From an uncultured Acidobacteriota bacterium (GTDB lineage Bacteria > Acidobacteriota > Thermoanaerobaculia > Multivoradales > JAHEKO01): a stretch of DNA of 64,000 bases. The translations under genes and the position numbers were made by a program. The stretch covers positions 672,001 to 736,000 of the forward strand of contig CAVQNG010000003.1 of NCBI GenBank assembly GCA_963713825.1, given 5' to 3'. Positions 28,712 through 52,330 of the stretch are shown one piece after another (the first letter of the stretch is position 1; each line of letters starts with the position of its first letter). The notes under the pieces were generated by a model. The model was not told the DNA's origin, made no database searches, and saw nothing but the letters and a program-made list of their open reading frames with translations.

Positions 28712-29166
28712 TCTTCGTCCTCCGTCTCACGCGCGAAGGCCCGATGGATCCCTTCGTAGCCCGTGCACCGACAGAGATTCCCCGCCAGTGCCGCCTGCAC
28801 TTCCTGCCGGCTGGGATCAGGATTGTCGCGTAGCAGTGCCCATGCCGTGACAATGATGCCCGGGGTGCAAGCACCACACTGCACACCACCGTCGCTGACG
28901 AAGCCTTCGAGAAAGGCTTGGGCCTCGGGCGCAGCAAGACCCTCCACCGTTTCGATCGTCGCCTCGGCGCACTGGATCCGGGGGATGAGGCAGGAGAGCA
29001 CCGGTTCGCCGTTCATCAGCACCGTGCACGCCCCGCACTCGCCCTCGCCACAACCCTCCTTGGTGCCGATCAGATCGAGCTCGTCTCGTAGGATGTCCAA
29101 AAGACGTGCCATGGGGTGGCCCTCGACGACGATCGCCTCACCATTGACGACAAGCTCGGTCTTCAT
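28708..29166 (-). CDS. Xanthine dehydrogenase family [2Fe-2S] subunit (CoxS/XdhC-like)
   Basis: GCGEGECGACTV..SC, QCGACTPG, NLCRCTGY. Confidence 0.95.
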   Translation of the reverse strand: MKTELVVNGEAIVVEGHPMARLLDILRDELDLIGTKEGCGEGECGACTVLMNGEPVLSCLIPRIQCAEATIETVEGLAAPEAQAFLEGFVSDGGVQCGACTPGIIVTAWALLRDNPDPSRQEVQAALAGNLCRCTGYEGIHRAFARETEDEE

Positions 29167-31466: not shown

Positions 31467-32842
31467 GCCGCCAGGCTCCTGGCAAGATACCGCCCGGCGC
31501 CACGCTCTACCGCCAAGTCACCATCCTGGAATTGGATGCGCCCCGCGGCGATTACGGCTGAAGGCAGACCGGTGACGCTAAAGCCTTCGAAGATGCTGCG
31601 ATCGCAGCGCTGGTGGTGCGTGGCGGCTGAAATAACGCCGGTCGCCTCCGGATCCCATACAACCAGGTCCGCGTCGGCGCCGACCGAGATCGAGCCCTTG
31701 CGCGGATAGAGGCCGAAGAGCTGAGCGGGACGGGTAGAGACCAGGTCCACGAACTGCTGCAGTCCGATACGTCCTTGCCTCACACCATAGGAGTAGAGCA
31801 ATGCCAAGCGGTGCTCGACACCTGCGGCGCCTCCCGGGATCTGTCGAAAGTCGTTGCGACCCAGGTCCTTCTGCCCCTTCAGATTGAAGGGACAATGGTC
31901 GGTGCCCACGACTTGGAGAGCTCCGGTCCGCAAGGCCTCCCAGAGAGCTTGCTGATGCTCAGCCGATCGAATCGGCGGCGCGATGACGTAGGCGGCTGCC
32001 TCGAAATCAGGCTTCTCGTACACCGATTCGTCCAGGAGCAGGTACTGGGGACACGTCTCGCCATAGACCTCCAGCCCCGAGTCCCGAGCCTTTGTCAGGG
32101 CGTCAACGGCCTGCTGGCAGGTGACGTGGACGATGTAGGCGGAAGCTCCGGTCAGCCCTGCCAGGACCATCATCCGCTCGGTAGCCTCGCCCTCCAATTC
32201 GGGCGGCCGCGAGCGAGGATGGGCCTCCGGGCCCAGACTACCGGCAGCCGCCAGGCGGCTGCGCAGGTGCTCCACCATGTCCCCGTGCTCGGCGTGCACC
32301 AACACACGGGCTTGCAGGTTGTGCGCCGCCTCGAGGGCGCGAATCAGCGCCGCGTCTTCCAGGCCCACCGTCTCCTTGTAGGCCATGTAGAGCTTGAAGG
32401 AGGGAATTCCCTGGTTGTGGACGCAGTCGGCCATCCACCGCGTGGTCTCCTCCCCCCACCAGGTGACGGCCATGTGGAGCCCATAGTCGGCCACCGCCTT
32501 ACCAGCCTCCTCCTTGCGGGCCGCGAGCGCCTCCAAGAAGCTCTCTCCACGCTCTGGGTGAACGAAATCCACGATCGTCGTAGTGCCGCCTGCCAGCGCC
32601 GCCGCAGTACCACTCTCGAAATCGTCCGAAGAGACGGTGCCTGCCACTGGTAGCTGCATGTGAACGTGGGGATCGACGCCGCCGGGAAAGACCAGTTGGC
32701 CTGCGGCATCCAAGACTTCGTCTTCGGAGCCCGGCGCGAGAGCTTCGGCCAATTCCACGATCCGGCCGTCACGACATCGAATATCACCGCGCCAGCGCTG
32801 CTGGCCCGTCACGATGTCGCCGTTGCGGATGAGAATGCCCAC
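31463..32842 (-). CDS. hydA: Dihydropyrimidinase / D-hydantoinase (HydA/HyuA)
   Basis: PGGVDPHVH, GGTTT, SFKLYMAY (carboxylated Lys), VHAE, VHV, GTDHCPF. GTG start at 32842. Confidence 0.93.
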   Translation of the reverse strand: MGILIRNGDIVTGQQRWRGDIRCRDGRIVELAEALAPGSEDEVLDAAGQLVFPGGVDPHVHMQLPVAGTVSSDDFESGTAAALAGGTTTIVDFVHPERGESFLEALAARKEEAGKAVADYGLHMAVTWWGEETTRWMADCVHNQGIPSFKLYMAYKETVGLEDAALIRALEAAHNLQARVLVHAEHGDMVEHLRSRLAAAGSLGPEAHPRSRPPELEGEATERMMVLAGLTGASAYIVHVTCQQAVDALTKARDSGLEVYGETCPQYLLLDESVYEKPDFEAAAYVIAPPIRSAEHQQALWEALRTGALQVVGTDHCPFNLKGQKDLGRNDFRQIPGGAAGVEHRLALLYSYGVRQGRIGLQQFVDLVSTRPAQLFGLYPRKGSISVGADADLVVWDPEATGVISAATHHQRCDRSIFEGFSVTGLPSAVIAAGRIQFQDGDLAVERGAGRYLARSLAA

Positions 32843-32984
32843 GATCAACCTTTGAAGAGGCGCATGTTCTCCTGAGAGTAACGCGAATTCGCGCCTTGCA
32901 TAGCGGATTCTGCCTCTCAGAGTGGGTGAGAAGGACCTTCGGACCTGCGTTTCGACTCCCGAATCAAGTATCCTGTCACGCTGT

Positions 32985-35614
<2,630 letters not shown>

Positions 35615-35618
<4 letters not shown>

Positions 35619-36838
35619 CCACAGAACCATCTCTTTCGTTGGGCCCTGACCGGGACGGCAGGATTCTCGTCACGGCGGCCGGCCGTGTGGTCCGGTTCGA
35701 CGACGAGGCCACGCCTGGGACAGCCCCGGCGTCGAACCTGAGCTGCGAGCAAGCTCGCATCGAGCCCGGCAGGGTCAACGCTCACACCCACATCTACAGC
35801 GGGCTGGCACCGTTCGAGATGCCCCCCCCGGCAGTGGCGCCCGAGAACTTTCTGCAGATTCTCGAGCGCGTCTGGTGGCGGCTGGATCGGGCTCTCGACG
35901 AGGAGTCCCTGCGGGCTTCGGCCCGCTTCTACGTGGCCCAAGCCCTTCTCGCTGGTACCACAACCCTGGTCGATCATCACGAATCGCCAACTTTCATCGA
36001 CGGCTCGCTGGACATCCTGGCCGATACCTGTCAGGAGCTCGGGATGCGGGCGCTGCTGTGCTATGGCGCCACCGAGCGCAACGGCGGCCGCGAGGAGGCT
36101 CACCGAGGACTCGAGGAGTGCCGCCGGTTCCATCAGGACAACAGTCGATCGTTGGTTCGAGGACTCGTAGGGCTCCATGCCTCCTTCACGGTCTCCGATG
36201 AGACCATCGAGGAGGCTGCCAACCTGAGCCGCGAGCTCGACACAGTCCTACACGTCCATGTGGCCGAGGACCTGGCCGATGTCGAGGATGCCCTTGAACG
36301 GGGCTACGACGGACCGCTGGAGCGCTTGCTGCACTTCGGTGCCCTGCCGCCGGGTTCGATTCTGGCTCACTGTGTTCACTGCCAGGCGGCGCAAGTTCGC
36401 ACCATTGCCGCCCGAGACCTGTGGATCGTCCAGAACCCGCGCTCGAATCTTGGCAACGGTGTGGGCTACCCCGCGGCCCTCAGCGAGAGTAACCAGGTGG
36501 CGGTCGGAACCGACGGCTATCCGGCCCGCATGGAGGACGAGGTGCTCGTCCTGAGAGCCGAGGCTGCCGAACACGGCGAAGCCGAGACTGTCATCACTGC
36601 TCGCGTCGCCGGCGCCTACCAGCTCGGAGCCGAACGCATTGGCCTCCAGCTGGCACCTTTGACACCAGGTGGTGCCGCTGATTTCATTGTGCGCGACAAC
36701 GACCGGGTCCGCCATGTTGGAGTAGCCGGTCGAGTTGTGGTTCGTGACGGCAGCTTGACGACTGCCGACCTGGAAGAAATCCATGCTCATGCGGTGGAGC
36801 AGGCCAGGCGTCTGTGGAACCGACTGGGCTCTGTGTAG
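35615..36838 (+). CDS. ssnA: SsnA-like amidohydrolase
   Basis: NAHTHIYS, FLQILERVWWRLDRALD, GTTTLVDHHES, GLHASFT, HVHVAE, NPRSN, GTDG. GTGA overlap with xdh. Confidence 0.8.
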
Positions 36839-36854: not shown

Positions 36855-38345
36855 ATGCCGACACTCGGGCTGGAAACGAAAATCATCGACAAAGAAGTCT
36901 TCGACAACACGGTCAGCCATTTCCGCGCAGCCGGGATCCGCCTGCCGACCTTTGGCGAGCTGGCCGATCCCAAACGCATTCCGGAGACCATTCGCCAGGG
37001 CCTGGACGAGATCGACACCGATGCTGGGCACCCCCTGAACCTGTTCCGAGTGCACTGGCACAATGCGTCGGGTGGAGGCGCGTTTCGGGCCGTCCCCGAG
37101 CACATTGTCTTGCCATCGGAGCTGACGGGCGTCGAAGCGAAGATCGTCGTTCTTCCGGCGGATCACTTCCCAATGATTCACGCTCACAAGGTGCTGGCAA
37201 CCTATGGTTGTCTGGCTCCTCGGGTCATTACAGGGCAGTTCGATCCCACCCATCATCGAGCCATCTGGCCCTCCACCGGCAACTACTGCCGTGGAGGCAT
37301 CGCGGTCTCGAGGATCATGGACTGTCGAGGGGTCGCGGTGCTGCCGGAGGGCATGAGTCGAGAGCGCTTCGATTGGCTCGAGGCGTGGGTATCGAACCCC
37401 GAAGACATCATCAGGACCCACGGCACCGAGAGCAACGTCAAAGAGATCTATGACAAATGCGCCGAGCTCGACCAAGATGCGGACAACATCATCTTCAACC
37501 AGTTCAGTGAGTTCGGAAACTACCTGGCTCACTACTTATGCACCGGCTCGGCGATCGACCGGGTCCTGACACATCTGAAGGCCGACCATCAAGAGCTGCA
37601 ACTGCGGGCCTACATCTCGGCCACCGGATCCGGCGGCACTCTGGCGGCCGGCGACTACCTCAAGGAGCGTCATGGCGCCTGGATCGTCGCAGTGGAGGCC
37701 CTGGAGTGCCCGACGTTGCTCTACAACGGCTTCGGAGAGCACAACATCCAGGGCATCGGAGACAAGCACATTCCGTTGATTCACAACGTCATGAACACCG
37801 ACGCTGCCGTGGCGATCTCGGACGCCAGCACCGACGAGCTGCTGGTGCTCTTCAACTCCGATGAAGGCAAGCGCTATCTGGCCGAGCGACAAGGAGTACC
37901 CGACGATACTCTCGAAGCCCTGCACCGATTCGGGTTCTCCTCCATTTGCAACATCCTGGCCGGTATCAAGACGGCCAAGTACCTCGATCTCGGATCGGAC
38001 GATGTCGTCGTAACGGTGGCCACCGATGGTGAAGAGCTCTACCGCAGCGAGCACGAGAAGATCCTCGCCCAGCGATTTGGTGACCGGTTCGATTCGATCT
38101 CGGCTGGAGAGACCTTTGGGCAGCACCTGGCGGGCGTCGCTACCGACCACTTCCTGGAACTGTCGCACATCGACCGAACCCGCATCTTCAATCTTGGCTA
38201 CTTCACCTGGGTGGAGCAGCAGGGCATTTCCATCGAAGACTTCGTTGCCCGTCGCGAGCCGATTTTCTGGCACCGACTCCTCGATCTGATCCCCGCCTGG
38301 GACGCAATGATCGACGAGTTCAACAGTCACGTAGGCCTGGAGTGA
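36855..38345 (+). CDS. PLP-dependent enzyme, fold type II (uncharacterised family linked to Se-dependent Mo-hydroxylase loci)
   Basis: AHKV (PLP Lys), [17 protein letters not shown] phosphate loop, [12 protein letters not shown]. Confidence 0.85.
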
Positions 38346-38377: not shown

Positions 38378-39817
38378 ATGAACCTCGCGTCGACTCTCGT
38401 CTGTCAGGGCTGCGGCCATTCCGTGCCTCCCGATGAGCCCTATCCGTTCCGCTGTCCTCAGGCCGATCTCGACGACGACATCGATCACGTTCTCCGGCGG
38501 ATTCTGGACACCTCCGCCCTGGACTCGCCCGCCGAGCTGAGTCGGCCTTTCTCCAGCGATCTCCGCAGCCCTTTCTTGCGATATGGGCGGCTACTTCACA
38601 GCTATCAGACGGCCCGCCACATGGGCCTCGACGATACGAGCTTCGCCAAACTGGTGACACGACTGGACGCCGCGGTGGCTCAGACCGACGGCCACGGGTT
38701 TCGAGTCACGCCCTTCGCTCCGGCTGACAAGCTGGCGCAGGCGCTCGACCTCGAGCCCGGTGGCCTTTGGATCAAGGACGAGACAGGCAATGTCTCCGGC
38801 TCCCACAAGGCTCGACACCTGATGGGACTCATGCTCTGGCTGGAGATGAGCCGGCAGCTCTGGCCAGAGAAGGTGGAGACCGCCCCCCGGCTGGCGATCG
38901 CCAGTTGCGGCAATGCCGCCCTCGGCGCCGCGGTCGTTGCCCGTGCGATGAACTATCCGCTCGACGTGTATGTGCCGACCTGGGCGGATACGGCGGTCAC
39001 AGAGCGCCTCGCCGGGCTGGGTGCAACCCTCGTTGCCTGCCCAAGGGAAGGTTCGATCACCGGCGACCCCTGCTATCACCGCTTCCGGGAAGCTGTCGGT
39101 CAGGGGGCCCTGCCCTTCACCTGCCAGGGGACAGAGAACGGTTTGGTCATCGAGGGAGGCAAGACCCTGGTCTGGGAGATGGTTTCCTCTCTCATGGTCG
39201 AGGAGCGCGAGCTCGACCACCTGTGCATCCAGGTCGGCGGTGGAGCCCTGGCCAGCGCCTGTATCCAGGGACTGTTCGAAGCGCGAAGCGTCGGCGTTCT
39301 CGAGCGGCTCCCCGCCATCCACACAGTGCAGTCGTCGGGCGCAAGCCCTCTGCACCGGGCCTGGGAGGCCTTGATGGAGAGGACTCTCGTTCGCCACCAG
39401 CGCGAGACACGTGAAATGCCCCCCCACCTCGGCGATGACGTGGAGCGGGCCGAATTCGTGCGCGACCGGGTCTCTCCTGCCCTCATCCAGGACGAGCTGC
39501 ACTATGCCGCCACCCACCGTTCCGAGTTCATGTGGCCCTGGGAAGAAGAGCCCACCAGCATCGCCACCGGCATCCTGGACGACGAGACCTACGACTGGCT
39601 GTCCGTGGTCGAAGGCATGCTGCTGACGGGGGGTGTCCCTTTGGTCGTCGATGAGAAGACCCTGACTCGGGCCCACGGACTGTCTCGCGAATACACCTCG
39701 GTGGCGGCCGACCCTACCGGCACTTCGGGTCTGGCAGGGCTCTTGGAGTTACACCGCCGCGGTACGATCCAGCCCGGCGAGACTCTCGGCGTGCTGTTGA
39801 CCGGCGTCGAGAGATAG
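38378..39817 (+). CDS. Threonine-synthase-like PLP-dependent enzyme (fold type II)
   Basis: N-terminal CxxC..C, KDETGNVSGSHKAR, ASCGNA, QVGGGAL, LTG. Confidence 0.85.
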   Translation: MNLASTLVCQGCGHSVPPDEPYPFRCPQADLDDDIDHVLRRILDTSALDSPAELSRPFSSDLRSPFLRYGRLLHSYQTARHMGLDDTSFAKLVTRLDAAVAQTDGHGFRVTPFAPADKLAQALDLEPGGLWIKDETGNVSGSHKARHLMGLMLWLEMSRQLWPEKVETAPRLAIASCGNAALGAAVVARAMNYPLDVYVPTWADTAVTERLAGLGATLVACPREGSITGDPCYHRFREAVGQGALPFTCQGTENGLVIEGGKTLVWEMVSSLMVEERELDHLCIQVGGGALASACIQGLFEARSVGVLERLPAIHTVQSSGASPLHRAWEALMERTLVRHQRETREMPPHLGDDVERAEFVRDRVSPALIQDELHYAATHRSEFMWPWEEEPTSIATGILDDETYDWLSVVEGMLLTGGVPLVVDEKTLTRAHGLSREYTSVAADPTGTSGLAGLLELHRRGTIQPGETLGVLLTGVER

Positions 39818-39944: not shown

Positions 39945-40895
39945 ATGAGTGACACGAAAATCATTGTTGTCGTCGGAGCGACTGGTGCGCAGGGTGGTGG
40001 CTTGGTTCGCGCCATCCTCGATGACGAGGGTGGACCCTTCACAGCGCGCGCCATCACCAGAAATGTCGAATCGGAGAAGGCGCAAGAGCTCGCCACGCTG
40101 GGCGCCGAGGTCGTCGCCGCCGACATCGACGACCCGCAGAGTCTCGAAAAGGCCTTGGAAGGCGCCTATGGTGCCTACTTCGTAACCTTCTTCTGGGAGC
40201 ACTTCTCGCCGGAGAAGGAGATGGCCCACGTCCGAGCCATGGCCGAGGCCGCCAAGCACGCAGGGCTCCAGCACGTTGTCTGGTCGACCCTCGAGGACAC
40301 CCGGAATTGGGTACCGCTCGACGACGACTCGATGCCGACGCTGATGGAGAGCTACAAGGTGCCACACTTCGATGCCAAGGGTGCGTCGAACCACTACTTC
40401 ACGGACCTCGGTGTTCCCGTCACGTTCCTGCTTACATCGTTCTACTGGGACAACTTCATTCATTTCGGGATGGGGCCGCAGAAGGGACCCGACGGCAAGT
40501 ACACCATCGCCCTGCCCATGGACGACAAAAAGCTTCCGGGCATGGCTGCCGAGGACATCGGACGCGCCGCCTATGGCATCTTCAAGAAGGGGCCCGAGCT
40601 CATCGGCAAGACGATCGGTATCACGGGCGAGCATCTGTCTGGAGCGGAAATGGCTGCCGCGCTCGGCAACGCCCTGGGGGTGGAGGTGGCCTACAACGCC
40701 GTGCCGCCCGAGGTCTATCGCAGCTTCGGCTTCCCCGGCGCCGAAGACCTCGGCAACATGTTCCAGTTCAAGCGGGACTTCAACGACTACTTCTGCGGTG
40801 TGCGCAAGGTCGACGAGACTCGAGCACTCAATCCAGCCCTCCAGTCCTTCGACGAGTGGCTCGCCCGCAACGCTAGTCGCATCCCGATAGAGTAG
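39945..40895 (+). CDS. NmrA/HSCARG-family NAD(P)-binding protein
   Basis: VVGATGAQGG, VPHFDAK, RBS AAGGAG. Confidence 0.92.
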   Translation: MSDTKIIVVVGATGAQGGGLVRAILDDEGGPFTARAITRNVESEKAQELATLGAEVVAADIDDPQSLEKALEGAYGAYFVTFFWEHFSPEKEMAHVRAMAEAAKHAGLQHVVWSTLEDTRNWVPLDDDSMPTLMESYKVPHFDAKGASNHYFTDLGVPVTFLLTSFYWDNFIHFGMGPQKGPDGKYTIALPMDDKKLPGMAAEDIGRAAYGIFKKGPELIGKTIGITGEHLSGAEMAAALGNALGVEVAYNAVPPEVYRSFGFPGAEDLGNMFQFKRDFNDYFCGVRKVDETRALNPALQSFDEWLARNASRIPIE

Positions 40896-41301: not shown

Positions 41302-41958
41302 ATGTTTCTAGGTCATTTCGGAGTCGGATTCGGGGCCAAACGTATAGCCCCGAGGACGTCGCTGGGGACCCTGTTCCTGGCCTCCCAGTTCATCGATCTA
41401 CTCTGGCCCCTCCTCCTTCTCGTGGGAGCCGAGCGCGTCGCAATCGTGCCAGGCATCACGGTGGTTACGCCCCTGGACTTCACCCACTATCCGTGGTCCC
41501 ACAGCCTGCTGGCCGTCACGCTCTGGGGTGTACTTTTTGCAGCGACCTACTATCTGGTGAAGCGCTACAAGGCTGGAGCGTGGGTCTGCGGAGCCGCGGT
41601 CGTCAGCCACTGGGTACTCGATCTCGTGCTGCATCGGCCCGACCTGCCGCTGTTGCCCGGCGGTGACTACCGGGCGGGGTTCGGCCTCTGGAACTCTCTT
41701 GCAGCCACTCTCGTGATCGAGCTTGCGGTCTTCGCCGTGGGCCTTGTCCTCTATCTTCGAACCACGACCGCGTCTGATCGTATCGGGTCGATCGGTCTAT
41801 GGAGTCTGGTCGGCTTTCTCCTGCTGGTCTATGCGGGAAATCTGTTCGGGGCTCCTCCACCGAGTGTGCGCGCCATCGCCTGGCTAGGGCAGGCGCAATG
41901 GCTACTTATCGCGTGGGGCTACTGGATCGACCGACATCGAGTGACACAAGGAGTCTGA
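41302..41958 (+). CDS. Membrane-bound metal-dependent hydrolase (YdjM/DUF457-like)
   Basis: MFLGH, FIDLL, YPWSHSL, SHWVLDLVLHRPDLP. Confidence 0.8.
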   Translation: MFLGHFGVGFGAKRIAPRTSLGTLFLASQFIDLLWPLLLLVGAERVAIVPGITVVTPLDFTHYPWSHSLLAVTLWGVLFAATYYLVKRYKAGAWVCGAAVVSHWVLDLVLHRPDLPLLPGGDYRAGFGLWNSLAATLVIELAVFAVGLVLYLRTTTASDRIGSIGLWSLVGFLLLVYAGNLFGAPPPSVRAIAWLGQAQWLLIAWGYWIDRHRVTQGV

Positions 41959-42054: not shown

Positions 42055-42996
42055 TCAGGGCACGATATGGGTGCCGGCCGAGCCGCGAATGGCAGCCTCG
42101 AGTAGGTGGGGCTGGGTAATGATTACCTCCTGGCCGCCATGCTCCAGGAACTCGATCGCCGCTTCGATCTTGGGCTTCATGCTGCCGGGCGGGAAATGAC
42201 CTGCCTCGAGATACAGCCGCGCCTCGCGGACGGTCATTCGATCGATCTCCCGCTGCTCGGGCTTCCCGAAGTTCAGAGCCACCCTGTCCACTGCCGTCGA
42301 GAGGATGAACATCTCGGCTCCGAGGTTCTTGGCCAGCATGCATGAGGCCCAGTCCTTGTCGACAACGGCACCCACCCCTTCGAGGCCACCGTCGTCCCGG
42401 CGAATCACCGGAATCCCGCCACCGCCAACCGCCACCACGATGATGTCCTTGGCCAACAGTGCCTCGATGGCCGGCTCCTCGATGATCTCCAGTGGCCGGG
42501 GTGACGCGACCACCCGCCGCCAGCCCCGCCCGGCGTCCTCGACCATCATCCACCCTTCGTTGTCCTGGTGCTCACGTGCTGTTGCCTCGCTGTAGAAGGG
42601 GCCGATCGGTTTCGAGGGCTTCTCGAATCCCGGGTCGTTCGCGTCGACCACCGTCTGCGTCACAATCGCGGCCACGGGCTTGTCGATCCCGCGGCGCCGC
42701 AACTCGTTGCCCAGGGTCTGGCTGATCTGATAGCCGATGGCACCCTGCGTATCGGCGCCACAACTGTCCAGGGGCACTTGGTGCAGCACCTCCTTGGCCA
42801 GCTCCGAGCGCAACAGGATGAAGCCGACCTGTGGGCCGTTGCCGTGCGTGATGACGACACGGTAACCCTCGGCCACGATATCGGCGATGTAATCGCTCGT
42901 CTCACCACAGGCCCGGTACTGATCGAAGACCGTCGAGTGCTCCGCATCTTTGATCAGCGAGTTACCACCAATAGCAATGACGACCAGCTTCTCCAT
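42055..42996 (-). CDS. arcC: Carbamate kinase
   Basis: VIAIGGNSL, THGNGPQVG, PSKPIGPFY, GWRRVVASP, VVDKD, GSMKPK. Confidence 0.95.
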   Translation of the reverse strand: MEKLVVIAIGGNSLIKDAEHSTVFDQYRACGETSDYIADIVAEGYRVVITHGNGPQVGFILLRSELAKEVLHQVPLDSCGADTQGAIGYQISQTLGNELRRRGIDKPVAAIVTQTVVDANDPGFEKPSKPIGPFYSEATAREHQDNEGWMMVEDAGRGWRRVVASPRPLEIIEEPAIEALLAKDIIVVAVGGGGIPVIRRDDGGLEGVGAVVDKDWASCMLAKNLGAEMFILSTAVDRVALNFGKPEQREIDRMTVREARLYLEAGHFPPGSMKPKIEAAIEFLEHGGQEVIITQPHLLEAAIRGSAGTHIVP

Positions 42997-43112
42997 GGAT
43001 CACCTCTCTCATGCCACGTCTCAGAGTTGAGACTCTTAGGCTATTATCCCGTTTCCAGACCCATTCAAGGGTCCTGAACTGTACGACCCCCGAAATCGGG
43101 AGGAGGTTTTCA

Positions 43113-44066
43113 ATGCGTAGCTTTCTGGGAAGGGACGTCCTCTCCCTCAAGGACTTCGACCGCGAAGAAGTCGATCACATTCTCGAAGTGGCCGAGGAAT
43201 TGGCTCCGATCGCCCGTAATCGTCAGAACACCGACTTGTTGCAGGACAAGATTCTGGCGGTGGCCTTCTACCAGCCCTCGACACGCACGCGGCTCGCCCA
43301 TGAGGCCGCGATGCTCCGCTTGGGCGGCAAGGTCACCGGCTACTCCGACGCCAAGATGACCCGCGCCGGCGACTTCTACCAGGAGACCATCAAGGACACC
43401 GTCAGGATGCTGGAGTGCTATGGCGATTGCATTGTCATGCGCCATTTCGAGCAGGGCGCACCCCACGAAGCCGCCCGCTGGGCAGAGGTTCCCATCATCA
43501 ACGGTGGCGACGGCTGGGGCGAGCACCCCACCCAGATCCTCACCGATCTCTATACCGTGCAGCAGGCCAAAGGCAGGATCGACGGCCTCAACTGGCTGGC
43601 CGTGGGTGACATGCGGATGCGCACCATGCACTCCCTGGCCTACGCCCTGACCAACTTCGACTGTCCCATCACTTTCGTCGCGCCGCCCGAGATCTCCCTG
43701 ACCGACGAGTTCAAGGCCGAGTTGGCGGGCTACGACCTCGACTTCCGTGAGGTGGACCATGTCGAGGAGGCCATCGCCGAGGCCGATGTGATTCTGGTCG
43801 AGCCCGTCGTGCAGCCCGACTACACCAAGTCCCGTGATGAGCGAGACGGGGACGTCGATCTGACACCGGCCAACTATCGGATCACCCGGGAGCTGCTCGA
43901 GGCCAAGGCCAAGTCGGATGCCGTGCTGCTGCACTCGCTGCCCCGCATGGACGAGATCCCGACCGAGGTCGACGACACCCCCTGGGCCTACTACTGGCAG
44001 GAGGCCTTCAACGGCGTGGTGATGCGGATGGCGTTGCTCGCCCTGGTCCTGGGAGCCAAAGAGTAG
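43113..44066 (+). CDS. Aspartate/ornithine carbamoyltransferase-family protein (ATCase-like, non-canonical)
   Basis: RBS GGAGG, PSTRT, NGGDG..EHPTQ, HSLPR. Lacks the ATCase KGE and RxQxER aspartate-binding motifs. Confidence 0.85.
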   Translation: MRSFLGRDVLSLKDFDREEVDHILEVAEELAPIARNRQNTDLLQDKILAVAFYQPSTRTRLAHEAAMLRLGGKVTGYSDAKMTRAGDFYQETIKDTVRMLECYGDCIVMRHFEQGAPHEAARWAEVPIINGGDGWGEHPTQILTDLYTVQQAKGRIDGLNWLAVGDMRMRTMHSLAYALTNFDCPITFVAPPEISLTDEFKAELAGYDLDFREVDHVEEAIAEADVILVEPVVQPDYTKSRDERDGDVDLTPANYRITRELLEAKAKSDAVLLHSLPRMDEIPTEVDDTPWAYYWQEAFNGVVMRMALLALVLGAKE

Positions 44067-45288: not shown

Positions 45289-47340
45289 CTATGCGTAGAG
45301 ACTGTTGATGTAGTTGATCCGATCCCCATCCAGAATCGCGAGTCGTAGCGCATCCATGAGAAAGAAGTACGTCAGGTCTACCTCGCCCTCGGCTTCCCCT
45401 TCGAGTGTTCCCTCAGGGTCCTGGCGGTCGAATCGTACCCGGAATCCTGGCCCGGTGAACGCGATCTCGTTCGCCTCGGCCCGCAGCTCGAACTCCTGGC
45501 CTTCGAAGCGGCCCAGCACCTCGTCGCGACCGGCCCGTCGCGCCATCTGGAAGCCATCCAACTCGATCGACGTCCTCCAGTCTTCAGCCCGCCGAAAGAA
45601 ACGCGGTTTGACGACGTAGGGCCCTCCATCTTCGGGGCAGAAGACGTCGCAGTTGCCGCACTCGTTGCAAAAGTCGGCGAAGGTGCCGATCTGGTGTCGC
45701 TCCTCGAGTCTCAGAGATCCCGTCTGCGCCCAATCCCAGCCTTCGGATCGCCGTTGCACCTTGACGACGGGAATCTCATCTCCTTCGATACGGTAGGTGA
45801 AGTTGGCATCATTGGGGCAGACCGGTACGCAGATGTCACAGGTGATGCAGTCGAACAGCTGCAGGTGGCGGCCGATCTTACGCGGTGCGGTGGCGTTGCG
45901 CTCCCGCCCGTAGCGGGGATCCCGTTCCACGGCCTCGACATAGCGTTCCGTGTTCAGCACCTTGGCAGCAGAGACCCACTGGCTGAACAGATCTTCTCCG
46001 GCCGCTTGTCTGAGGTCAGCCTCGTCCGACAGCGCTAGCAGGCAGGCCTCGCGAACTGGCGCTTCCGGGACTAACTCCAACTGGTCGAGGGCCTCTCGGC
46101 CCAGGTCATGCGCTCGCACGATGAAGTCGTCGATGGTCGGGGCGCCCACCTGCTCCATGCGTCGGGCCAGCTCTGCATGGTAGGCCTGCATTCGTCCATA
46201 ACCGCCCTTCTTCAGTAGGTCCGTGCAGACCGTCACCGGCACCAGGCCCAATGCCACCGCGTCCGGGAAATTGACGCTATCGATGCCAGCTGAGAACGAC
46301 ACCGGGATACGATCGCCGAAGTGCCGTCGAAAACGCCGCACCAGATGCATGGCAAGAACGTGGAGTGGCGGTCCCGACAAATAGACCTCCCTCTCGCTCT
46401 CCGGCAGGAATCCCTGGTTGTTTTCGACGATCAGAGTGTTGGTGAACTTCGCACCCAGACCCAAATCGAGAGCCCTGGCTTTTTGCTCCAGTCGCTCCAT
46501 CATGGCAACGGCTTGCTCCCAGGTCGTATCCCGCTCGAAAGCGCTGGCCGGCACGCGGATATCGTGGTAACCGAGGCTGTCGTGCAGCAGGTGCGCGGTC
46601 TTCTCGCGGCCGAGCAGCATGGGATTGAACTTGACGACGCAGTTGAGCCGATACTCCTGCATCAGAAACAGGATGATGCCTTCGATCTCCTCTGGAGGAC
46701 AGCCGTGAAAGGTGCTCAGGGTGACCGTGTCCGCCAGGGAGTTGGAGAAATCCAGATCGCGCAGCTCGCCCAGCTCAGAGGGAATCTCTTGGCGCAGCCG
46801 TTCGATGGTTTCGCCGGCGCTCATCATCCCTTCAATGAACGATCGAACCCTGTCCGAACGGATGCCGGCGAGGTCGTATCCCACACTCAGGTCGTAAACG
46901 ATCTCTCGGCACCCCTGCACCCCTTCGATCTGGCCGCTGTCGGCGAGCATCTCGATCAGCATCGAGCCCTTCACGTACTCGTTCAGTGACTCTTCCAGCT
47001 TGAGCTCCTGGGACCACTCGGCGTTGAAGCCTACAGTCCGCATGTCGATGCAGGGGCGTGGAATCTCCAGGTCGTCGAGAACTTGGACGGTCTTCAGCTC
47101 CAGGATCCGGGCGCCGCCCAACCAGGCCAGAACGAGGTTCTGCGCCATCTGGGTCTGGGGGCCGGCCGCCGGGCCCAGCGGGCTGGGTACCCGGTGGCGG
47201 TGAAAGTCGACCGCGAAGTCCTGCCCATGCTTTGGGGAGAAGAACCGACTCCGCGGCAAGTCGAAGATCGATCCGCATGCCGCCAGCTCTCGGAACATGC
47301 GCCGCGTCAGCGCGGCAAAAGGATAGGGCGTCAGGTTCAA
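45289..47340 (-). CDS. YgfK-like oxidoreductase, short form (DHOD-like barrel plus C-terminal 4Fe-4S, no central NAD(P)H/FAD module)
   Basis: GPAAGPQTQMAQN, ELKTVQ..PCID..FNAEWS, TLSTFHGCPP, YLSG, CTDLLK.GGY, then FDCITCDICVPVCPNDAN and CNECGNCDVFCP. Likely TTG start overlapping the upstream stop. Confidence 0.85.
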   Translation of the reverse strand: MNLTPYPFAALTRRMFRELAACGSIFDLPRSRFFSPKHGQDFAVDFHRHRVPSPLGPAAGPQTQMAQNLVLAWLGGARILELKTVQVLDDLEIPRPCIDMRTVGFNAEWSQELKLEESLNEYVKGSMLIEMLADSGQIEGVQGCREIVYDLSVGYDLAGIRSDRVRSFIEGMMSAGETIERLRQEIPSELGELRDLDFSNSLADTVTLSTFHGCPPEEIEGIILFLMQEYRLNCVVKFNPMLLGREKTAHLLHDSLGYHDIRVPASAFERDTTWEQAVAMMERLEQKARALDLGLGAKFTNTLIVENNQGFLPESEREVYLSGPPLHVLAMHLVRRFRRHFGDRIPVSFSAGIDSVNFPDAVALGLVPVTVCTDLLKKGGYGRMQAYHAELARRMEQVGAPTIDDFIVRAHDLGREALDQLELVPEAPVREACLLALSDEADLRQAAGEDLFSQWVSAAKVLNTERYVEAVERDPRYGRERNATAPRKIGRHLQLFDCITCDICVPVCPNDANFTYRIEGDEIPVVKVQRRSEGWDWAQTGSLRLEERHQIGTFADFCNECGNCDVFCPEDGGPYVVKPRFFRRAEDWRTSIELDGFQMARRAGRDEVLGRFEGQEFELRAEANEIAFTGPGFRVRFDRQDPEGTLEGEAEGEVDLTYFFLMDALRLAILDGDRINYINSLYA

Positions 47341-48761
47341 CTGCCCATGTCCTCGGTAAAGACCGACCGGGGAGGGGCGTGCGGATAAGCCCACTTGCGA
47401 ACCGCGACCGCCTCTTTGACGTGGTCGATGACCTGAAGCGAGATCTCCGTGACGATCTGTTCCAGTTCTCCTTCAGTCATCTCCACGATGAGACCGTCCA
47501 CGGCATCACCGATCATGGCCTCTACGACTGTATGCCCCTCCTCGCTGGAAAGCGTGGCCGACAGCGTGTCGGCGAACGCATTGAAGACCACCTGTCCCAC
47601 GGTGACTACGAGCGGTCTCAGAACGGCATCCGGTAGAGGCACCATTCGCAGGGCGTCAGCACTTTCCACGGCCTGCTCCAGGTTGGTGTTCATGAAGCCC
47701 CTTGCCTGTTCCCTGACTTCCTCGCTGGTCAGGATCTCCTGCAACTGATTGGCCAGCTCGCGGCTCAAAGCGTCGCGGTGAGTCGTAGCGACCGAGCGGA
47801 TGATCTTCTGGTGGGTCCCGTCACGGATCTCGGCCTGGGTCTCGTTGAGGATGCGCAGCGACACCATGTCGGAGATCTCTTCGCTGATGATGTTGGCGAA
47901 GTACTTGACTGTGCGGCTGATGACGTCGTCCCCTACCTTCGAGTATTCGCTCTGGTGCAGGCGAATGTAGATGGAAGCCACCCGAAACAGACGGAAGAGC
48001 CGGAATTGCTTGAGCGGAATGATTCCCAGCAGGTCGTACCAGTGGAACAGCGGGTACAGAAACCAGGTGGCATAAGTCCCACGACGAACCGAGACGAACC
48101 AACCGATGAAGAACTCCGCCGCGAAGATCAGCAGAAAGGGGAGATCGATCTTCCAGAAATTGTCGGTGAGATTGCCGCCCAGATCATAGGTTCGGTAGAA
48201 GTTGACCTCCATCAGGGGTCGCACTGTGTCGTCGAAGAACTGAACCCGCCCGGGAAGCCTCTGAGGGTCCGGCTGCAGCGACCAGAAGTATGGGAGGCCT
48301 TCCTCGCTGGTCACTCCTTCCATGACGGCCATTCCGCCCGGCTCCTCTTGGAGGTACAGCTGCATTTCCTTGAGACTGCGAATCAGGCTCCGGGTCAGCC
48401 CCGAGCGCTCGAACGGGTTCTCCTTCACAATCGTCACGGAGAGCCCTTGTAACTCCACAAGTGTCGTTTCGAGCTCGAAGGGTGGCGCCGCCGCTTCGAG
48501 CTGCTCTTCGAGGCGATCGACGAGCGCCAAGGTTGCCGTCGTGAGCGGCTCGGGCTCGATGCCCTTGACCGGATCGTAGATTCGCGTGATCGACGGAAGG
48601 TGCCGGAAATAGACGGGGCGTAGCCAGAGGTAAGTGAGATCGAACAGGATCAGGCCCAGGTTCACGATGGCCAGATAGACCATCAAGAAGTCCCAAGCCA
48701 ACCGTGGCGTGAGACTCCTCCCGAAGGCTCGTAGCCGAGCGAATCTGCCTTCCCTGCTCAT
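47337..48761 (-). CDS. Ion-transport-like membrane protein with S4-like helix and long helical C-terminus
   Basis: S1-like helix, large loop, IDLPFLLIFAAEF (S2), WYDLLGIIP (S3), FRLFRLFRVASIYIR (S4-like). No pore signature. Confidence 0.7.
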   Translation of the reverse strand: MSREGRFARLRAFGRSLTPRLAWDFLMVYLAIVNLGLILFDLTYLWLRPVYFRHLPSITRIYDPVKGIEPEPLTTATLALVDRLEEQLEAAAPPFELETTLVELQGLSVTIVKENPFERSGLTRSLIRSLKEMQLYLQEEPGGMAVMEGVTSEEGLPYFWSLQPDPQRLPGRVQFFDDTVRPLMEVNFYRTYDLGGNLTDNFWKIDLPFLLIFAAEFFIGWFVSVRRGTYATWFLYPLFHWYDLLGIIPLKQFRLFRLFRVASIYIRLHQSEYSKVGDDVISRTVKYFANIISEEISDMVSLRILNETQAEIRDGTHQKIIRSVATTHRDALSRELANQLQEILTSEEVREQARGFMNTNLEQAVESADALRMVPLPDAVLRPLVVTVGQVVFNAFADTLSATLSSEEGHTVVEAMIGDAVDGLIVEMTEGELEQIVTEISLQVIDHVKEAVAVRKWAYPHAPPRSVFTEDMGS

Positions 48762-48845
48762 GACCAGAGTCAAGCGTAACGCATACCCGCCTGCTTTGGC
48801 TTTGGCGGATTGCACATTGCGCTGTCTCGCGTGGCAGGGCCGTGG

Positions 48846-49222: not shown

Positions 49223-51118
49223 ATGTCGGACTCCTTCGCTCCCGTTCGCCAGGTGGCCTTGCTCTTTCTGGTACTCGCCGCCTCTTCCCTGGAGCCGGTT
49301 GGAGCGCAGGAGTCACCTGGGTTCGCGGACACTCGCTCGCGACTCGTCAGTCTTCACACCGATCGGTTGACCTCCGGCTGGCTGAAGACTCATGGCGTGC
49401 CCGGTGCTGTGGTGGCCCTCGTCAAAGACAGGCGTCCGCTGCTGGTCAAGGGCTACGGCGTGGCCGACTTGGCCTCCGGCGTGCCAATGGATCCCGAACG
49501 CACGCTCGTCCATGCCTCCTCTCTTGCCACACCCTTGACAGCGACCGCTCTGCTCCAGTTGGTCGATGCTGGACTTCTGGATCTGGGAGCCGACATCGAC
49601 TCCTATCTTCAGACCCTGCGAATCCAACCGACGTTTCCGGAGCCTGTTACCGCCAAGCGGCTTCTGGTTCATAGCGCCGGGTTCGACGCCCGGATCATCG
49701 CTCGTCAGGTTCACTACCCCGAGGAGCTCCAGCCACTGCAGGACTACCTGGCTGCCAGAATGCCACCCAGGATCCGGCCACCAGGCGAGGTCAGCATCTA
49801 CTCCGAGCACAGCTACGCCCTGGCGGGATTGCTGATCGAAGAGATCTCCGGCGCCCCGTTTGCCGCCTACATGCGTCGAAACGTGTTCTTGCCTTTGGGA
49901 ATGCGCCGGAGCTCATTTGCTTGGACGCCGGAGCTCGCGACCTCCGTGGCGACGGGCTATGGATTGGTAGGCACAGATCTCGAGCCGGTGCCAAGGGATC
50001 TCCGGCAGACGGTGCCGGCTTTCATGTTGGCGACCACCGCCTCGGACGCGGCCCACTGGATGCTGGCCCTGCTCAATCAGGGCGCCTTCGAAGGGCACCG
50101 CATCCTCAGCAGCGAAAGCGCTTCTCTGATGCTGTCGCGGCAATTCACCCACCATCCTGCGCTCGTCGGCAGGAGCTTTGGCTTGCGCGAAGGCCACCAC
50201 TTCGAGTCCGGCGAGTTCTTTCAGGTGGGCACGAGCTCGGGTTTCTCTTCGGCGGTTGTGCTGCTTCCTGCTCGACGCCTCGGACTCTTTGTGGCGGGCA
50301 ATGGTCGAACTCCTATCTGGGGATTGGTCGACGCCATCCTGAGGCCTTTTGTGGGCCGAGCTCCAAGCCCCCTCCCCCTAGATGAGGAGCCCTCCGAGGA
50401 CCGCGCTCTCGGGGTAGCCGGGTTCTATCGCGAGACCGGCATCCCGCTGACCAGCCTCGAGAAGCTGGCTACCCTGATCCGTCAGGATCGCCTGGTCGAG
50501 TCGGCCGCAGGCGACCTGGTCTGGCGGTCTCGCACATTCAGACCGGCGGAAGAGCCGTTGCTCTATCGAGAGATGGACTCGGGCGAGCCCTTGGCCCTGG
50601 TGAGCGGGACATCCAAGACCTGGTACCTGGCATTCTCGTGGGGACTCATGGAGGGCGTCTCCTGGTTCGACAGCCGACCGGTGCAGCTCACCCTCTGGGT
50701 CGTGTTTGCGGCCCTCTTTCTGGCGGCATCGGCCTTGCCGACGAGCCGGTTTCCGGCCCGGCAGGCCAGCCTGACTCCGCCGGACTCCTTTCGTCCTCGC
50801 TGGCCCCTCTACTGCGCTTCCCTCGCGGCTCTCTTTCATCTGGCCTTCCTCATCACCCTGGCCACCACACTGGCCTGGGCCCTTGGAGAGGGAGCCCAGA
50901 GTCTGGCCTTCGGTGTCCCCCTCGCCCTCCGCCTGGTATTAGGCCTGCCTTTGATCGGAGCAGCCCTGACCCTGCCCGCCCTGCTTGGCACGATTCGCGC
51001 CTGGTTGGCGAGATCCTGGACTCTCGGTCATCGTCTCCGCTTGACCTTCACCGTTGTCGCGTTGTTGCTGTTCCTGCCGTTTCTCCGCACCTGGAATATG
51101 CTGGGGTTCCATTTTTGA
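49223..51118 (+). CDS. Beta-lactamase class C/serine hydrolase-family membrane protein with degenerate active-site motifs
   Basis: VPGAVVALV..KGYG..D, LLVHSAG, PLGM, C-terminal TMs. The motifs read SLAT, YSE and QVG instead of SxxK, YxN and HxG. Confidence 0.85.
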   Translation: MSDSFAPVRQVALLFLVLAASSLEPVGAQESPGFADTRSRLVSLHTDRLTSGWLKTHGVPGAVVALVKDRRPLLVKGYGVADLASGVPMDPERTLVHASSLATPLTATALLQLVDAGLLDLGADIDSYLQTLRIQPTFPEPVTAKRLLVHSAGFDARIIARQVHYPEELQPLQDYLAARMPPRIRPPGEVSIYSEHSYALAGLLIEEISGAPFAAYMRRNVFLPLGMRRSSFAWTPELATSVATGYGLVGTDLEPVPRDLRQTVPAFMLATTASDAAHWMLALLNQGAFEGHRILSSESASLMLSRQFTHHPALVGRSFGLREGHHFESGEFFQVGTSSGFSSAVVLLPARRLGLFVAGNGRTPIWGLVDAILRPFVGRAPSPLPLDEEPSEDRALGVAGFYRETGIPLTSLEKLATLIRQDRLVESAAGDLVWRSRTFRPAEEPLLYREMDSGEPLALVSGTSKTWYLAFSWGLMEGVSWFDSRPVQLTLWVVFAALFLAASALPTSRFPARQASLTPPDSFRPRWPLYCASLAALFHLAFLITLATTLAWALGEGAQSLAFGVPLALRLVLGLPLIGAALTLPALLGTIRAWLARSWTLGHRLRLTFTVVALLLFLPFLRTWNMLGFHF

Positions 51119-51202
51119 GTGGAGCTTCCAACGCTCACTCCGCCATGGTTCGTGGCACAATGCAGCACGGCTAGACCTAGACGCTTGGGAGGGTCGATCT
51201 CT

Positions 51203-52330
51203 ATGCAACAGACTCGTATCACAGCCCTTTTCCTGACTGCACTGGTCGTCGGTTTCGGGGTCGCCTCGGGTGCCGATCTCGACCCCAACGCCGCGGCCCG
51301 CTTCGCCGGCCTGGCGCTCGATTGTGTGCATCGGGAGTATCCGAACAAGATCGCTCATGTCCTGGATAGCGACGAGGATGTCCAGCCGCCTCGACAGCTG
51401 ACACCGGTCTTCTATGGCTGCTACGACTGGCACTCGGCGGTGCATGGACACTGGCTGCTGGCACGGCTGGCGCGCTCCTTCCCCGGTACCGAGCTGGATC
51501 GCCAAGCCCGCGAAGCACTGGACAGGAGCTTCATCCCGCAGAACGTCCAGGGTGAAGTGGCCTATCTCGAGGGCTCGGGCAGGATTTCCTTCGAGCGTCC
51601 CTATGGCCTCGCCTGGCTCCTGCAATTGGCTGCCGAGTTCCGCCAATGGGACGACCCCAGGGCGCAGTGGTGGGCTTTTACCCTGGGTCCCCTCGAGAGG
51701 GTCGCCGTCGAGCGACTGACCGAATGGCTACCCAAGCTGACCGACCCCATTCGGGTCGGAGAGCACTCGCAGACCGCATTCGCTTTCGGTCTGATTCTGG
51801 ACTGGGCCCGCATCGCGGGCGATCAGGACATGACCGCTCTGATGGTGTCGCGGATCCGCGATTTCTACTTGCGTGACCGCAATTGCCCACTGTCCTACGA
51901 ACCCTCTGGCCAGGACTTCCTGTCCCCTTGCCTGGCCGAGGCCGATCTCGTGCGCCGGGTTCTGCCGCCCGCGGAGTTCGCGGCCTGGTTGGGGGCCTTC
52001 CTGCCGGAGATTCCCTTCGATGGCACGACGACCTGGCTGGAGCCCGCGGTGGTCACCGATCCAGAGGATCCGAAACTCGCCCACCTCGACGGCCTGAACC
52101 TGAGCCGCGCCTGGATGCTGGACGGTATCGCCTCCGGGTTACCCGCGGCGGATCCCCGCCTGGGCTCGATTCGGGGCGCCGCTGATCAGCACAGGAATGA
52201 TGGTCTCGGCTCGGTCACAGGCGAGCACTATGAAGGCGGCCATTGGCTGGGCAGCTTCGCCACCTATCTGGTCACGCAAAGGGGTCTTTCGAACCTGGCA
52301 GAACAGGAACAAGACGGCAAGAAGAAGTGA
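51203..52330 (+). CDS. DUF2891 protein
   Basis: REYPNK, FYGCYDWHSAVHGHW, FERPYG.AW, HLDGLNLSRAW, YEGGHWL. Confidence 0.92.
   Translation: MQQTRITALFLTALVVGFGVASGADLDPNAAARFAGLALDCVHREYPNKIAHVLDSDEDVQPPRQLTPVFYGCYDWHSAVHGHWLLARLARSFPGTELDRQAREALDRSFIPQNVQGEVAYLEGSGRISFERPYGLAWLLQLAAEFRQWDDPRAQWWAFTLGPLERVAVERLTEWLPKLTDPIRVGEHSQTAFAFGLILDWARIAGDQDMTALMVSRIRDFYLRDRNCPLSYEPSGQDFLSPCLAEADLVRRVLPPAEFAAWLGAFLPEIPFDGTTTWLEPAVVTDPEDPKLAHLDGLNLSRAWMLDGIASGLPAADPRLGSIRGAADQHRNDGLGSVTGEHYEGGHWLGSFATYLVTQRGLSNLAEQEQDGKKK

Follow-up and report, generated by a model that had tools for sequence, protein, structure and literature searches.

Reductive urate degradation, a pathway solved only in 2025, runs from urate through 2,8-dioxopurine, its dihydro form and ureidomethylhydantoin to 2,3-diureidopropionate. 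YgeW then releases carbamoyl phosphate and leaves a mono-ureido compound, which is hydrolyzed by YgeY to diaminopropionate, and this in turn is converted by YgeX to pyruvate (PMC12507026, bioRxiv 10.1101/2025.04.24.650524 and PMC12990295). YgeW and YqeA make ATP from diureidopropanoate (bioRxiv 10.1101/2025.04.24.650524). The order of the ureido cleavages is still disputed (PMC12990295); Liu et al. report that YgeW takes the distal 3-ureido group. Here, we analyzed a 64,000-nucleotide stretch of DNA (the window) from an uncultured Acidobacteriota bacterium of the Thermoanaerobaculia (contig CAVQNG010000003.1, positions 672,001 to 736,000), in which the gene at 43113–44066 encodes a homolog of the catalytic chain of aspartate transcarbamylase (ATCase), located between the genes for carbamate kinase (arcC) and YgeW. 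With modest confidence, and on the strength of sequence comparisons, we propose that this ATCase-like protein is a catabolic transcarbamylase acting in the diureidopropionate route, where it would phosphorolyze one of two ureido groups.

The closest described relatives are the pseudo-ATCases, named by Barba, Dutoit, Legrain & Labedan in 2013 (PMC4016543). They fall into three subgroups, and their closest genuine relative is the Pyrococcus abyssi ATCase. As defined in Table 1 of that paper, they keep the STRT and HPTQ motifs, have altered H265–P268 and R230–Q232 motifs, and are annotated as ATCases. Subgroup 1 includes Rubrobacter Rxyl_2847 (UGTCase), which is encoded beside a carbamate kinase and cleaves allantoate (diureidoacetate) with phosphate or arsenate; it is the only pseudo-ATCase that has been assayed. 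Subgroup 2 has one member, from Nocardioides JS614, which adjoins ygeW, xdhABC and hyuA and bears the signature H[ST]LP with G-x-[SC]. Subgroup 3 comprises proteins of marine bacteria, encoded beside a Na+ symporter and an asparaginase, with the signature HSLP and V-x-P.

The motif and annotation features that define a pseudo-ATCase are all found in the ATCase-like protein, and its sequence would place it in this named but almost uncharacterized radiation. Like the pseudo-ATCases, it is associated with purine catabolism and lies beside a carbamate kinase gene, and its top match by both sequence and fold, the P. abyssi structure 1ML4, is likewise their closest genuine ATCase. It resembles subgroup 3 in its HSLP and V-Q-P residues, but the context of that subgroup (Na+ symporter, asparaginase, marine bacteria) differs. 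It resembles subgroup 2 in its gene context, but does not fit the G-x-[SC] signature. In contrast to the UGTCase gene, its operon holds no allantoinase or uricase-pathway genes, and its substrate is presumably a C3 (propionate) diureide rather than the C2 (acetate) diureide. The initial annotation of the window had presented the class as new, which does not hold, as the pseudo-ATCases were named in 2013 and the Nocardioides protein adjoins ygeW (PMC4016543). The proposed all-phosphorolytic variant of the pathway is new. The literature searched holds no description of this family or of its partnership with YgeW and carbamate kinase, and the words "aspartate", "PyrB" and "ATCase" occur nowhere in the texts of two of the pathway papers.

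Active-site residues were mapped with an HMMER alignment to the PALA-bound P. abyssi ATCase 1ML4, the best match in the PDB (E 7.9e-68), and with a 105-row MAFFT alignment of the ATCase-like protein, 102 representative homologs (those of 290–360 aa among 150 listed), and Escherichia coli PyrB and ArgI. Both alignments bear out the claim of the initial annotation that the carbamoyl-phosphate motifs STRT, HPTQ and HSLP are intact. The ligands of this substrate are all kept (STRTR, R110, HPTQ and HSLP), with equivalents of the ATCase residues S52–T55, R105 (in MRH), H134, Q137 and L267. Shi et al. (PMC4581275) give R167, R229 and Q231 as the aspartate site of ATCase, and S80* and K84*, from the adjacent chain, as carbamoyl-phosphate ligands. 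The equivalent of R167 is kept in the sequence R-T-M-H-S. In contrast, T-R-V-Q-K-E-R is replaced by E-P-V-V-Q-P-D (R229→P, Q231→V and R234→D), followed by a longer 240s loop. In the 80s loop, T-R-A-G-D-F-Y-Q-E-T stands in place of the E. coli PyrB sequence T-S-L-G-K-K-G-E-T, with the changes K84→Y and S80→R; the loop is one residue longer than that of E. coli and two longer than that of P. abyssi. The HPLP motif of ATCase becomes HSLP by P266→S. K84 may be functionally replaced by the invariant arginine that stands in place of S80. Judging from these replacements, the β-carboxylate half of the pocket appears to be dismantled and partly acidic, with the α-carboxylate arginine staying in place. 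The acidic residues E230 and D236, where ATCase has R229 and R234, would fit a non-anionic side chain.

The protein shares with the ATCase catalytic chains (1ML4; E. coli 1D09) a predicted two-domain transcarbamylase fold (OTCace_N followed by OTCace), in addition to the carbamoyl-phosphate site and R167, and is 41% identical to 1ML4 and 40% identical to E. coli PyrB. The AlphaFold2 model, computed from a 66-sequence alignment, has a mean pLDDT of 94.9 and a pTM of 0.93, with lower pLDDT values confined to the two remodelled loops (about 82 at residues 81–90, and 71–75 at residues 231–250). The best Foldseek matches of the model are genuine ATCases, led by 1ml4 (TM 0.89, 41% identity), and no solved pseudo-ATCase is among the structural matches. 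Family models give a divided answer. The ATCase equivalog TIGR00670 is passed (257.7 bits, above the cut-off of 236.95), another ATCase model, NF002032, is failed (229.9 bits, below 263), and NF006046 and NF008853 are missed by a wide margin, as are the YgeW models NF005538 (30.7 bits, cut-off 453) and TIGR03316 (25.2 bits, cut-off 500). Since the ATCase models rank first in NCBIfam, an automatic pipeline would call this protein PyrB.

The open reading frame (ORF) encodes 317 aa plus a stop, with uninterrupted translation. The frame is open further upstream, to an ATG at 43011, but 43113 is the likely start, because all 120 homologs among the matches listed in a word-indexed protein search measure 316–318 aa. 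These 120 matches are all at least 80% identical to the query; the named records among them come from metagenome-assembled genomes (MAGs) of Thermoanaerobaculia, Marinimicrobia and Anaerolineae, and every named relative carries the label "aspartate carbamoyltransferase". An exhaustive search of representative sequences retrieved 11,953 proteins at E ≤ 1e-3. Among the full-length 50%-cluster representatives listed, the combination of FYQE[ST], EPVVQPD and HSLP occurs in only two, P0123 (69% identity) and P0124 (65%), and the next tier is at most 51% identical. A search from P0124 added one new named lineage, an Acidimicrobiales MAG.

Within the family thus delimited, the altered signatures pointed out by the initial annotation (YQET and EPVVQPD) are near-invariant. 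The STRTR and HSLPR motifs are present in all 241 full-length family proteins, GDGWGEHPTQ in 240 and TRAGDFYQE[ST] in 236; EPVVQPDY is found in 195, and EPVVQADY in most of the others. The ATCase patterns KGE[ST] and [TS]RxQx[ED]R occur in none of the 241. Because the altered motifs are kept across the family, they are not a chance effect. When a collection holding one genome per species was scanned with the patterns K[MN]TRAGDF and YQE[ST]IKDT, at least 599 stretches matched and at least 580 were confirmed as relatives. Among 72,556 plasmids, a tblastn search with the ATCase-like protein gave 603 records, all below 60% identity, with no member of the family and no reference pseudo-ATCase; the 25 matches listed are 35–40% identical and annotated as pyrB or unannotated.

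The phylogenetic comparison with PyrB separates the family from genuine ATCases. A quick IQ-TREE run (LG+G4, SH-aLRT support only) used 106 rows, namely the 105 rows of the alignment, minus P0129, P0131 and P0149 with broken tails, plus four locus copies. In this tree, the family comes out as monophyletic (SH-aLRT 100) and lies inside larger clades of 37 rows (support 96) and 41 rows (support 91), neither of which shows RxQxER. The 57 canonical rows, E. coli PyrB among them, fall outside this non-canonical clade. Together with the replaced motifs, this separate position agrees with the view of the initial annotation that the protein is no ordinary ATCase. Many of the non-canonical rows have a common T-R-[AS]-G 80s loop and lack G166, and the 230s sequence differs from lineage to lineage; on its sequences, the clade looks like a radiation of specificities. 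It is also far more diverse (P0128–P0261; 37–41 of the 105 representatives) than the three published pseudo-ATCase subgroups.

All locus counts given here rest on the best 80 of the at least 580 relatives, comprising three loci from Thermoanaerobaculia (95–97% identity) and 77 from Chloroflexota (77–81%). By tblastn at a query coverage of at least 50%, a YgeW-type protein is found in 72 of the 80, carbamate kinase in 66, YgeY in 25 and PyrI in none. Sixty-nine loci extend 1.3 kb or more past the ATCase-like gene, and in 66 of these ORF clustering places YgeW or a YgeW-like protein next to it; two more, L023 and L068, show one by tblastn, giving 68 of 69, and L030 is the exception. Of the 66 loci that extend 2.5 kb or more downstream, 64 carry ArcC and two, L030 and L071, do not. 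The tight coupling of this transcarbamylase to YgeW and carbamate kinase in purine-catabolic clusters, which supports the initial annotation, persists in two phyla despite changes in gene order and in the form of YgeW (396 aa and knotted in the window, 329 aa in Chloroflexota). In Chloroflexota, the genes for the ATCase-like protein, the YgeW-like protein and ArcC follow each other in this order on one strand.

The 329-aa Chloroflexota partner, a "mini-YgeW", is encoded directly downstream of the ATCase-like gene (L005–L081; for example, at 11695–12684 in L031). It scores below every NCBIfam cut-off (OTCase 250.7 vs 306; YgeW 195.1 vs 453) and aligns as a YgeW without the long insertions and terminal helices. 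It keeps seven of the eight YgeW substrate residues proposed in PMC4581275, the exception being D124→H. Other recurrent neighbors are a GntR/UTRA regulator (usually ahead of the three Chloroflexota genes, and encoded within the retrieved flank of 62 among the 75 loci with at least 1.5 kb upstream), an 8-oxoguanine deaminase (42 of the 80 loci; NF006055 680 bits, passed), an adenine deaminase (40 of 80; TIGR01178 520.3 bits, passed) and a PnrA/Bmp-type ABC transporter. The purine deaminases lie about 2–4 kb upstream of the ATCase-like gene in L005–L081. The Chloroflexota arrangement suggests a purine-scavenging island with the ring-opening genes elsewhere.

Conservation differs among the partners. 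In the Chloroflexota loci, the median pairwise identity is 87.1% for the ATCase-like protein, 79.1% for the YgeW-like protein and 67.9% for ArcC; the ATCase-like protein is more conserved than ArcC in all 150 sampled pairs, and than the YgeW-like protein in 145 of the 150. Between the window and the Chloroflexota, the corresponding identities are 79.5%, 37.7% (YgeW against YgeW-like) and 57.7% (ArcC). These values point to strong purifying selection on the ATCase-like protein. Its higher conservation relative to its operon partners could reflect either an unusual constraint or a cross-phylum transfer of this gene alone.

In the window, the gene order is as the initial annotation gave it, with the ATCase-like gene divergent from that of carbamate kinase (116 bp apart) and convergent with ygeW, which lies 13 bp past its stop. 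The genes of the cluster are as follows, with scores from Pfam, NCBIfam or the PDB.

27860–28711, minus strand: FAD-binding subunit (XdhB/YgfM-like); Pfam FAD_binding_5 and CO_deh_flav_C; NF043083 186.5 bits, below its cut-off
29163–31466, minus strand: second molybdopterin dehydrogenase large subunit (pucD-like); Pfam MoCoBD_1/2; TIGR03196 487 bits, below the cut-off of 783.65
31463–33079, minus strand: D-hydantoinase/dihydropyrimidinase (HyuA equivalent); TIGR02033 554.2 bits, cut-off 393.25
32922–35618, plus strand: selenium-dependent xanthine dehydrogenase (XDH)-type Mo/Fe-S enzyme (XdhD/XdhAC equivalent); TIGR03311 914.1 bits, cut-off 830.45; Pfam Fer2_2, Ald_Xan_dh_C and MoCoBD_1/2
35615–36838, plus strand: SsnA-like aminohydrolase; best NCBIfam match NF005540 (SsnA) 284.9 bits, below the cut-off of 444
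36855–38345, plus strand: divergent cysteine-synthase-like (CysK-like) pyridoxal phosphate (PLP) enzyme, 496 aa; Pfam PALP 32.3 bits, below the cut-off of 35; best PDB match 3fca, E 2.4e-14
38378–39817, plus strand: divergent threonine-synthase/dehydratase-like (ThrC-like) PLP enzyme, 479 aa; Pfam PALP 117.3 bits; best PDB match 2zsj, E 5.3e-10
39945–40895, plus strand: NmrA-like protein, from the family scan
41302–41958, plus strand: YdjM-like protein, from the family scan
42055–42996, minus strand: carbamate kinase (arcC/yqeA type); NF009007 416.3 bits, cut-off 266; TIGR00746 373.3 bits, cut-off 358.25
43113–44066, plus strand: pseudo-ATCase-type transcarbamylase (the ATCase-like protein); Pfam OTCace_N 155.7 bits, OTCace 84.8 bits
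44080–45270, minus strand: knotted carbamoyltransferase YgeW, 396 aa; NF005538 621.7 bits, cut-off 453
45289–47394, minus strand: short YgfK-like reductase, 701 aa, with 4Fe-4S motifs; TIGR03315 395 bits, over profile positions 4–398 of 1012 only

From their family assignments, these genes make up the set of the reductive urate pathway. The window YgeW aligns with E. coli YgeW over its full length, insertions included, and the SsnA-like protein clusters with a Chloroflexota SsnA that passes its model at 511.2 bits. The hydantoinase matches E. coli HyuA by tblastn at 37.5% identity across 32836–31487; its true start is probably near 32836, as the TIGR02033 match begins at residue 82. Likewise, the true start of the selenium-dependent XDH-type gene is probably about 28 codons later than annotated, with the TIGR03311 match beginning at residue 29. 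The initial annotation had reported no pyrI or pyrC neighbor, and this is upheld. Neither PyrI nor a second PyrB-like gene was found by tblastn in the 64 kb, so that the ATCase-like gene is the sole PyrB-like sequence there, and the sole neighbor of the dihydroorotase superfamily passes the D-hydantoinase model instead. The pyrR gene was not searched for by name, and the gaps between annotated neighbors, 97–407 bp, are too short to hold it. Two pathway genes were not found by tblastn in the 64 kb, namely YgeY (queries from E. coli and Chloroflexota; best E 0.79 and 0.87) and YgeX (E. coli query; best E 0.38).

From these sequences, we infer in which direction the protein works, what it cleaves and at which position, and how much ATP results. 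In the mechanism that we propose, the ATCase-like protein would be an active homolog of the ATCase catalytic chain that has given up aspartate as a substrate. Together with YgeW, or the short YgeW-like protein, and one carbamate kinase, it would form a module of two transcarbamylases and a kinase operating in the catabolic direction. In the window, the selenium-dependent XDH-type reductase, followed by the short YgfK, the SsnA-like protein and the hydantoinase, would generate 2,3-diureidopropionate, with the module standing at the end of the route. Each transcarbamylase would then phosphorolyze one ureido group of 2,3-diureidopropionate, the carbamate kinase would turn both carbamoyl phosphates into ATP, and the hydrolytic, ATP-wasting YgeY step of E. 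coli would thereby be bypassed. Because there are two ureido groups and YgeY is missing in the window, a model in which each transcarbamylase takes one group is the economical one. The presence of two transcarbamylases beside one kinase is what would be predicted from the suggestion of the initial annotation that both ureido groups leave as carbamoyl phosphate.

YgeW is a catabolic transcarbamylase that feeds carbamate kinase, as the ATCase-like protein would be; it is encoded in the same cluster, and their substrates are probably related. However, YgeW belongs to another branch of the superfamily, being knotted, related to AOTCase and SOTCase, and 396 aa long. More tentatively, we assign the 3-ureido group to YgeW and the 2-ureido group to the ATCase-like protein, which by analogy with ATCase might convert 3-amino-2-ureidopropanoate to 2,3-diaminopropionate and carbamoyl phosphate. 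This compound is N-carbamoyl-aspartate with -CH2-NH3+ replacing -CH2-COO-. Such a division is favored because ATCase acts on an α-carbon ureido group and the carboxylate could still be held by R167, and because YgeW is related to the acyl-ornithine transcarbamylases, which use a distal amine. The replacement of R229 and R234 by proline and aspartate, after an invariant glutamate, would suit a -CH2-NH3+ or -CH2-ureido side chain. The ATCase-like protein and YgeY (an M20 hydrolase, known from E. coli and C. sporogenes) would thus share the same mono-ureido intermediate and the diaminopropionate product, in spite of an unrelated fold and a different chemistry, as YgeY hydrolyzes and yields no ATP. 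On the pathway level, it is possible, though we stop short of calling it probable, that an all-phosphorolytic reductive urate pathway, in which both ureido groups become carbamoyl phosphate, operates in environmental anaerobes (Thermoanaerobaculia, Anaerolineae and others).

Several points weigh against this proposal. Phosphorolysis is thermodynamically uphill, and the kinase is needed to pull it. A true YgeY (TIGR03526 464.7 bits, cut-off 321.5) is encoded directly upstream of the ATCase-like gene in 24 of the 75 loci with at least 1.5 kb upstream, and this adjacency, which 13 of the 41 loci flanked by the full 9 kb display, has changed at least eight times along the gene tree. Because of these 24 loci, the ATCase-like protein is not a general substitute for YgeY; the replacement of YgeY put forward in the initial annotation stands for the window, where neither YgeY nor YgeX was found, but not as a general rule. 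With YgeY, these loci encode three enzymes for the cleavage of two ureido groups, a surplus that the simple model fails to explain. The hydrolase may serve there as a bypass, or the enzymes may share out regio- or stereo-isomers. In addition, neither SsnA nor hydantoinase nor XDH is seen within 10 kb in most Chloroflexota loci, and a passing SsnA is present in 4 of the 41 full-flank loci. The link to diureidopropionate therefore comes mainly from the window, the three Thermoanaerobaculia and a few Chloroflexota loci, and the SsnA-like protein of the window itself scores below its family cut-off. Furthermore, YgeW was assigned to the 2-ureido group by Li et al. (PMC12507026), which would leave for the ATCase-like protein the less ATCase-like 3-ureido group (albizziin). 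Liu et al. propose (R)-configured intermediates, and ATCase uses an L-amino acid. The catabolic interpretation of the initial annotation is thus supported in part.

A related explanation is that the protein is a catabolic transcarbamylase for another purine or pyrimidine ureide, such as allantoate/ureidoglycine, oxalurate, N-carbamoyl-β-alanine or an intermediate of an unknown Chloroflexota route. We regard this as unlikely, but as the alternative that survives best. It would accommodate the co-occurrence of YgeY in about one third of the loci and the pairing of the module, in most Chloroflexota loci, with the 8-oxoguanine and adenine deaminases (42 and 40 of the 80 loci) rather than with SsnA and HyuA, and the one assayed pseudo-ATCase does cleave allantoate (PMC4016543). 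However, neither allantoinase nor uricase nor ureidoglycolate dehydrogenase is found among the 17 annotated recurrent clusters of the 80 loci or the window ORFs scanned. The amidohydrolase of the window, which passes the D-hydantoinase model, fails the allantoinase model (238.5 bits, below the cut-off of 357.85), and the constant partner is YgeW or its short form, the known substrate of YgeW being diureidopropanoate. As a separate matter, N-carbamoyl-β-alanine was rejected as the substrate, since it needs the β-carboxylate site (R229 and Q231), which is lost.

A biosynthetic role, in which carbamoyl phosphate is used to make an albizziin-type ureido amino acid as in antibiotic clusters, seems very improbable. 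Transcarbamylase equilibria do favor carbamoylation, and enzymes that carbamoylate diaminopropionate (Dap) and Dab exist, but these are OTCase-like proteins with an HDLP motif (PMC4581275), whereas the protein described here has HSLP and an ATCase-like core. The recurrent neighbors include no non-ribosomal peptide synthetase or other biosynthetic genes, and the carbamate kinase, GntR regulator, purine deaminases and PnrA/Bmp-type transporter point to catabolism.

A non-catalytic paralog, acting as a structural or regulatory partner of YgeW or the kinase, would be in keeping with the constant presence of the second transcarbamylase and with the unusually high conservation, but appears slightly less credible again, as the equivalents of S-T-R-T, R105, H134, Q137 and L267 are invariant or near-invariant and the remodelled loops are themselves invariant, as expected of a substrate site. 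The reading as a pseudoenzyme was rejected because the carbamoyl-phosphate site is invariant. Least probable of all is an ordinary, if divergent, PyrB, for which the passed TIGR00670 equivalog, the ATCase annotation of all named copies and the ATCases among the best structural matches would speak, but which is contradicted by the replacement of K84, R229 and Q231, the lack of ATCase motifs in all 241 relatives, the failed NF002032 model (229.9 vs 263 bits), the clade apart from the 57 canonical rows, the lack of PyrI in the 80 loci and of pyr genes nearby, and the catabolic operon partners.

The family, which numbers hundreds of metagenome proteins and is represented in at least 580 genomes at the species level, is highly conserved and systematically misannotated, so that in metabolic reconstructions Chloroflexota, Acidobacteriota and other organisms will be credited with a pyrimidine gene that this almost certainly is not. 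If the all-phosphorolytic reading is true, the organisms would gain two ATP per urate, compared with one in E. coli and none in C. difficile. This would complete a series in which the ureido carbons yield 0, 1 or 2 ATP, a matter relevant to the growth of fermenters on purines and to designing uricolytic probiotics. The enzyme would then represent a new activity, 3-amino-2-ureidopropanoate (N-carbamoyl-diaminopropionate):phosphate carbamoyltransferase, built from ATCase by charge inversion of the β-carboxylate pocket. A second, ATCase-derived transcarbamylase also offers an independent handle on the disputed order of cleavage, as its specificity for the 2- or the 3-ureido group would reveal which mono-ureido intermediate arises. 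That the pathway occurs in lineages from sediment and groundwater is relevant to whether it has an ancient origin or is a gut adaptation. Finally, the non-canonical clade, holding 37–41 of the 105 representatives, is far larger than the three subgroups of 2013, with one member assayed.

The remaining genes of the window call for brief comment. Two divergent fold-type-II PLP enzymes occupy the place where YgeX would be expected, and the CysK-like one (36855–38345) is a candidate, by its sequence family and position, for the diaminopropionate-lyase step missing from the window. A protein of the same cluster as this enzyme is found in 24 of the 80 loci, and a ThrC-like PLP enzyme in 33 of the 80, the window ThrC-like enzyme being 24% identical to the Chloroflexota neighbor. 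The ThrC-like gene is present in 1 of 18 loci with YgeY compared with 27 of 38 loci without it; this near-exclusivity was dropped when independent contrasts gave eight pairs, about three of them in the opposite direction, with a median p of 0.25.

The short YgfK is matched by E. coli YgfK (1032 aa) at residues 5–405 and 904–971 only in tblastn, and thus lacks the middle of the E. coli protein, a stretch that presumably binds FAD/NAD(P)H. This loss hints at another electron donor, as proposed for C. difficile UacX. The pucD-like and XdhB-like pair (27860–31466, minus strand) adjoins the selenium-dependent XDH-type gene, with both members below their equivalog cut-offs. With two Mo enzymes in the window, the cluster may serve both to form urate by purine oxidation and to reduce it.

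Upstream of the short YgfK gene, a 492-aa ORF (47337–48815, minus strand) has no Pfam or NCBIfam match. In the ESM Atlas, it matches only clusters of "hypothetical proteins" of about 465–478 aa, commonest in Cyanobacteriota (score 0.97), and a relative is present in 2 of the 80 loci. Past the cluster, at 49223–52330 on the plus strand, a 631-aa protein of the serine beta-lactamase family is followed by a DUF2891 protein, and this pair is kept at 73–89% identity in L003 and L004, both of the Thermoanaerobaculia loci with enough flank.

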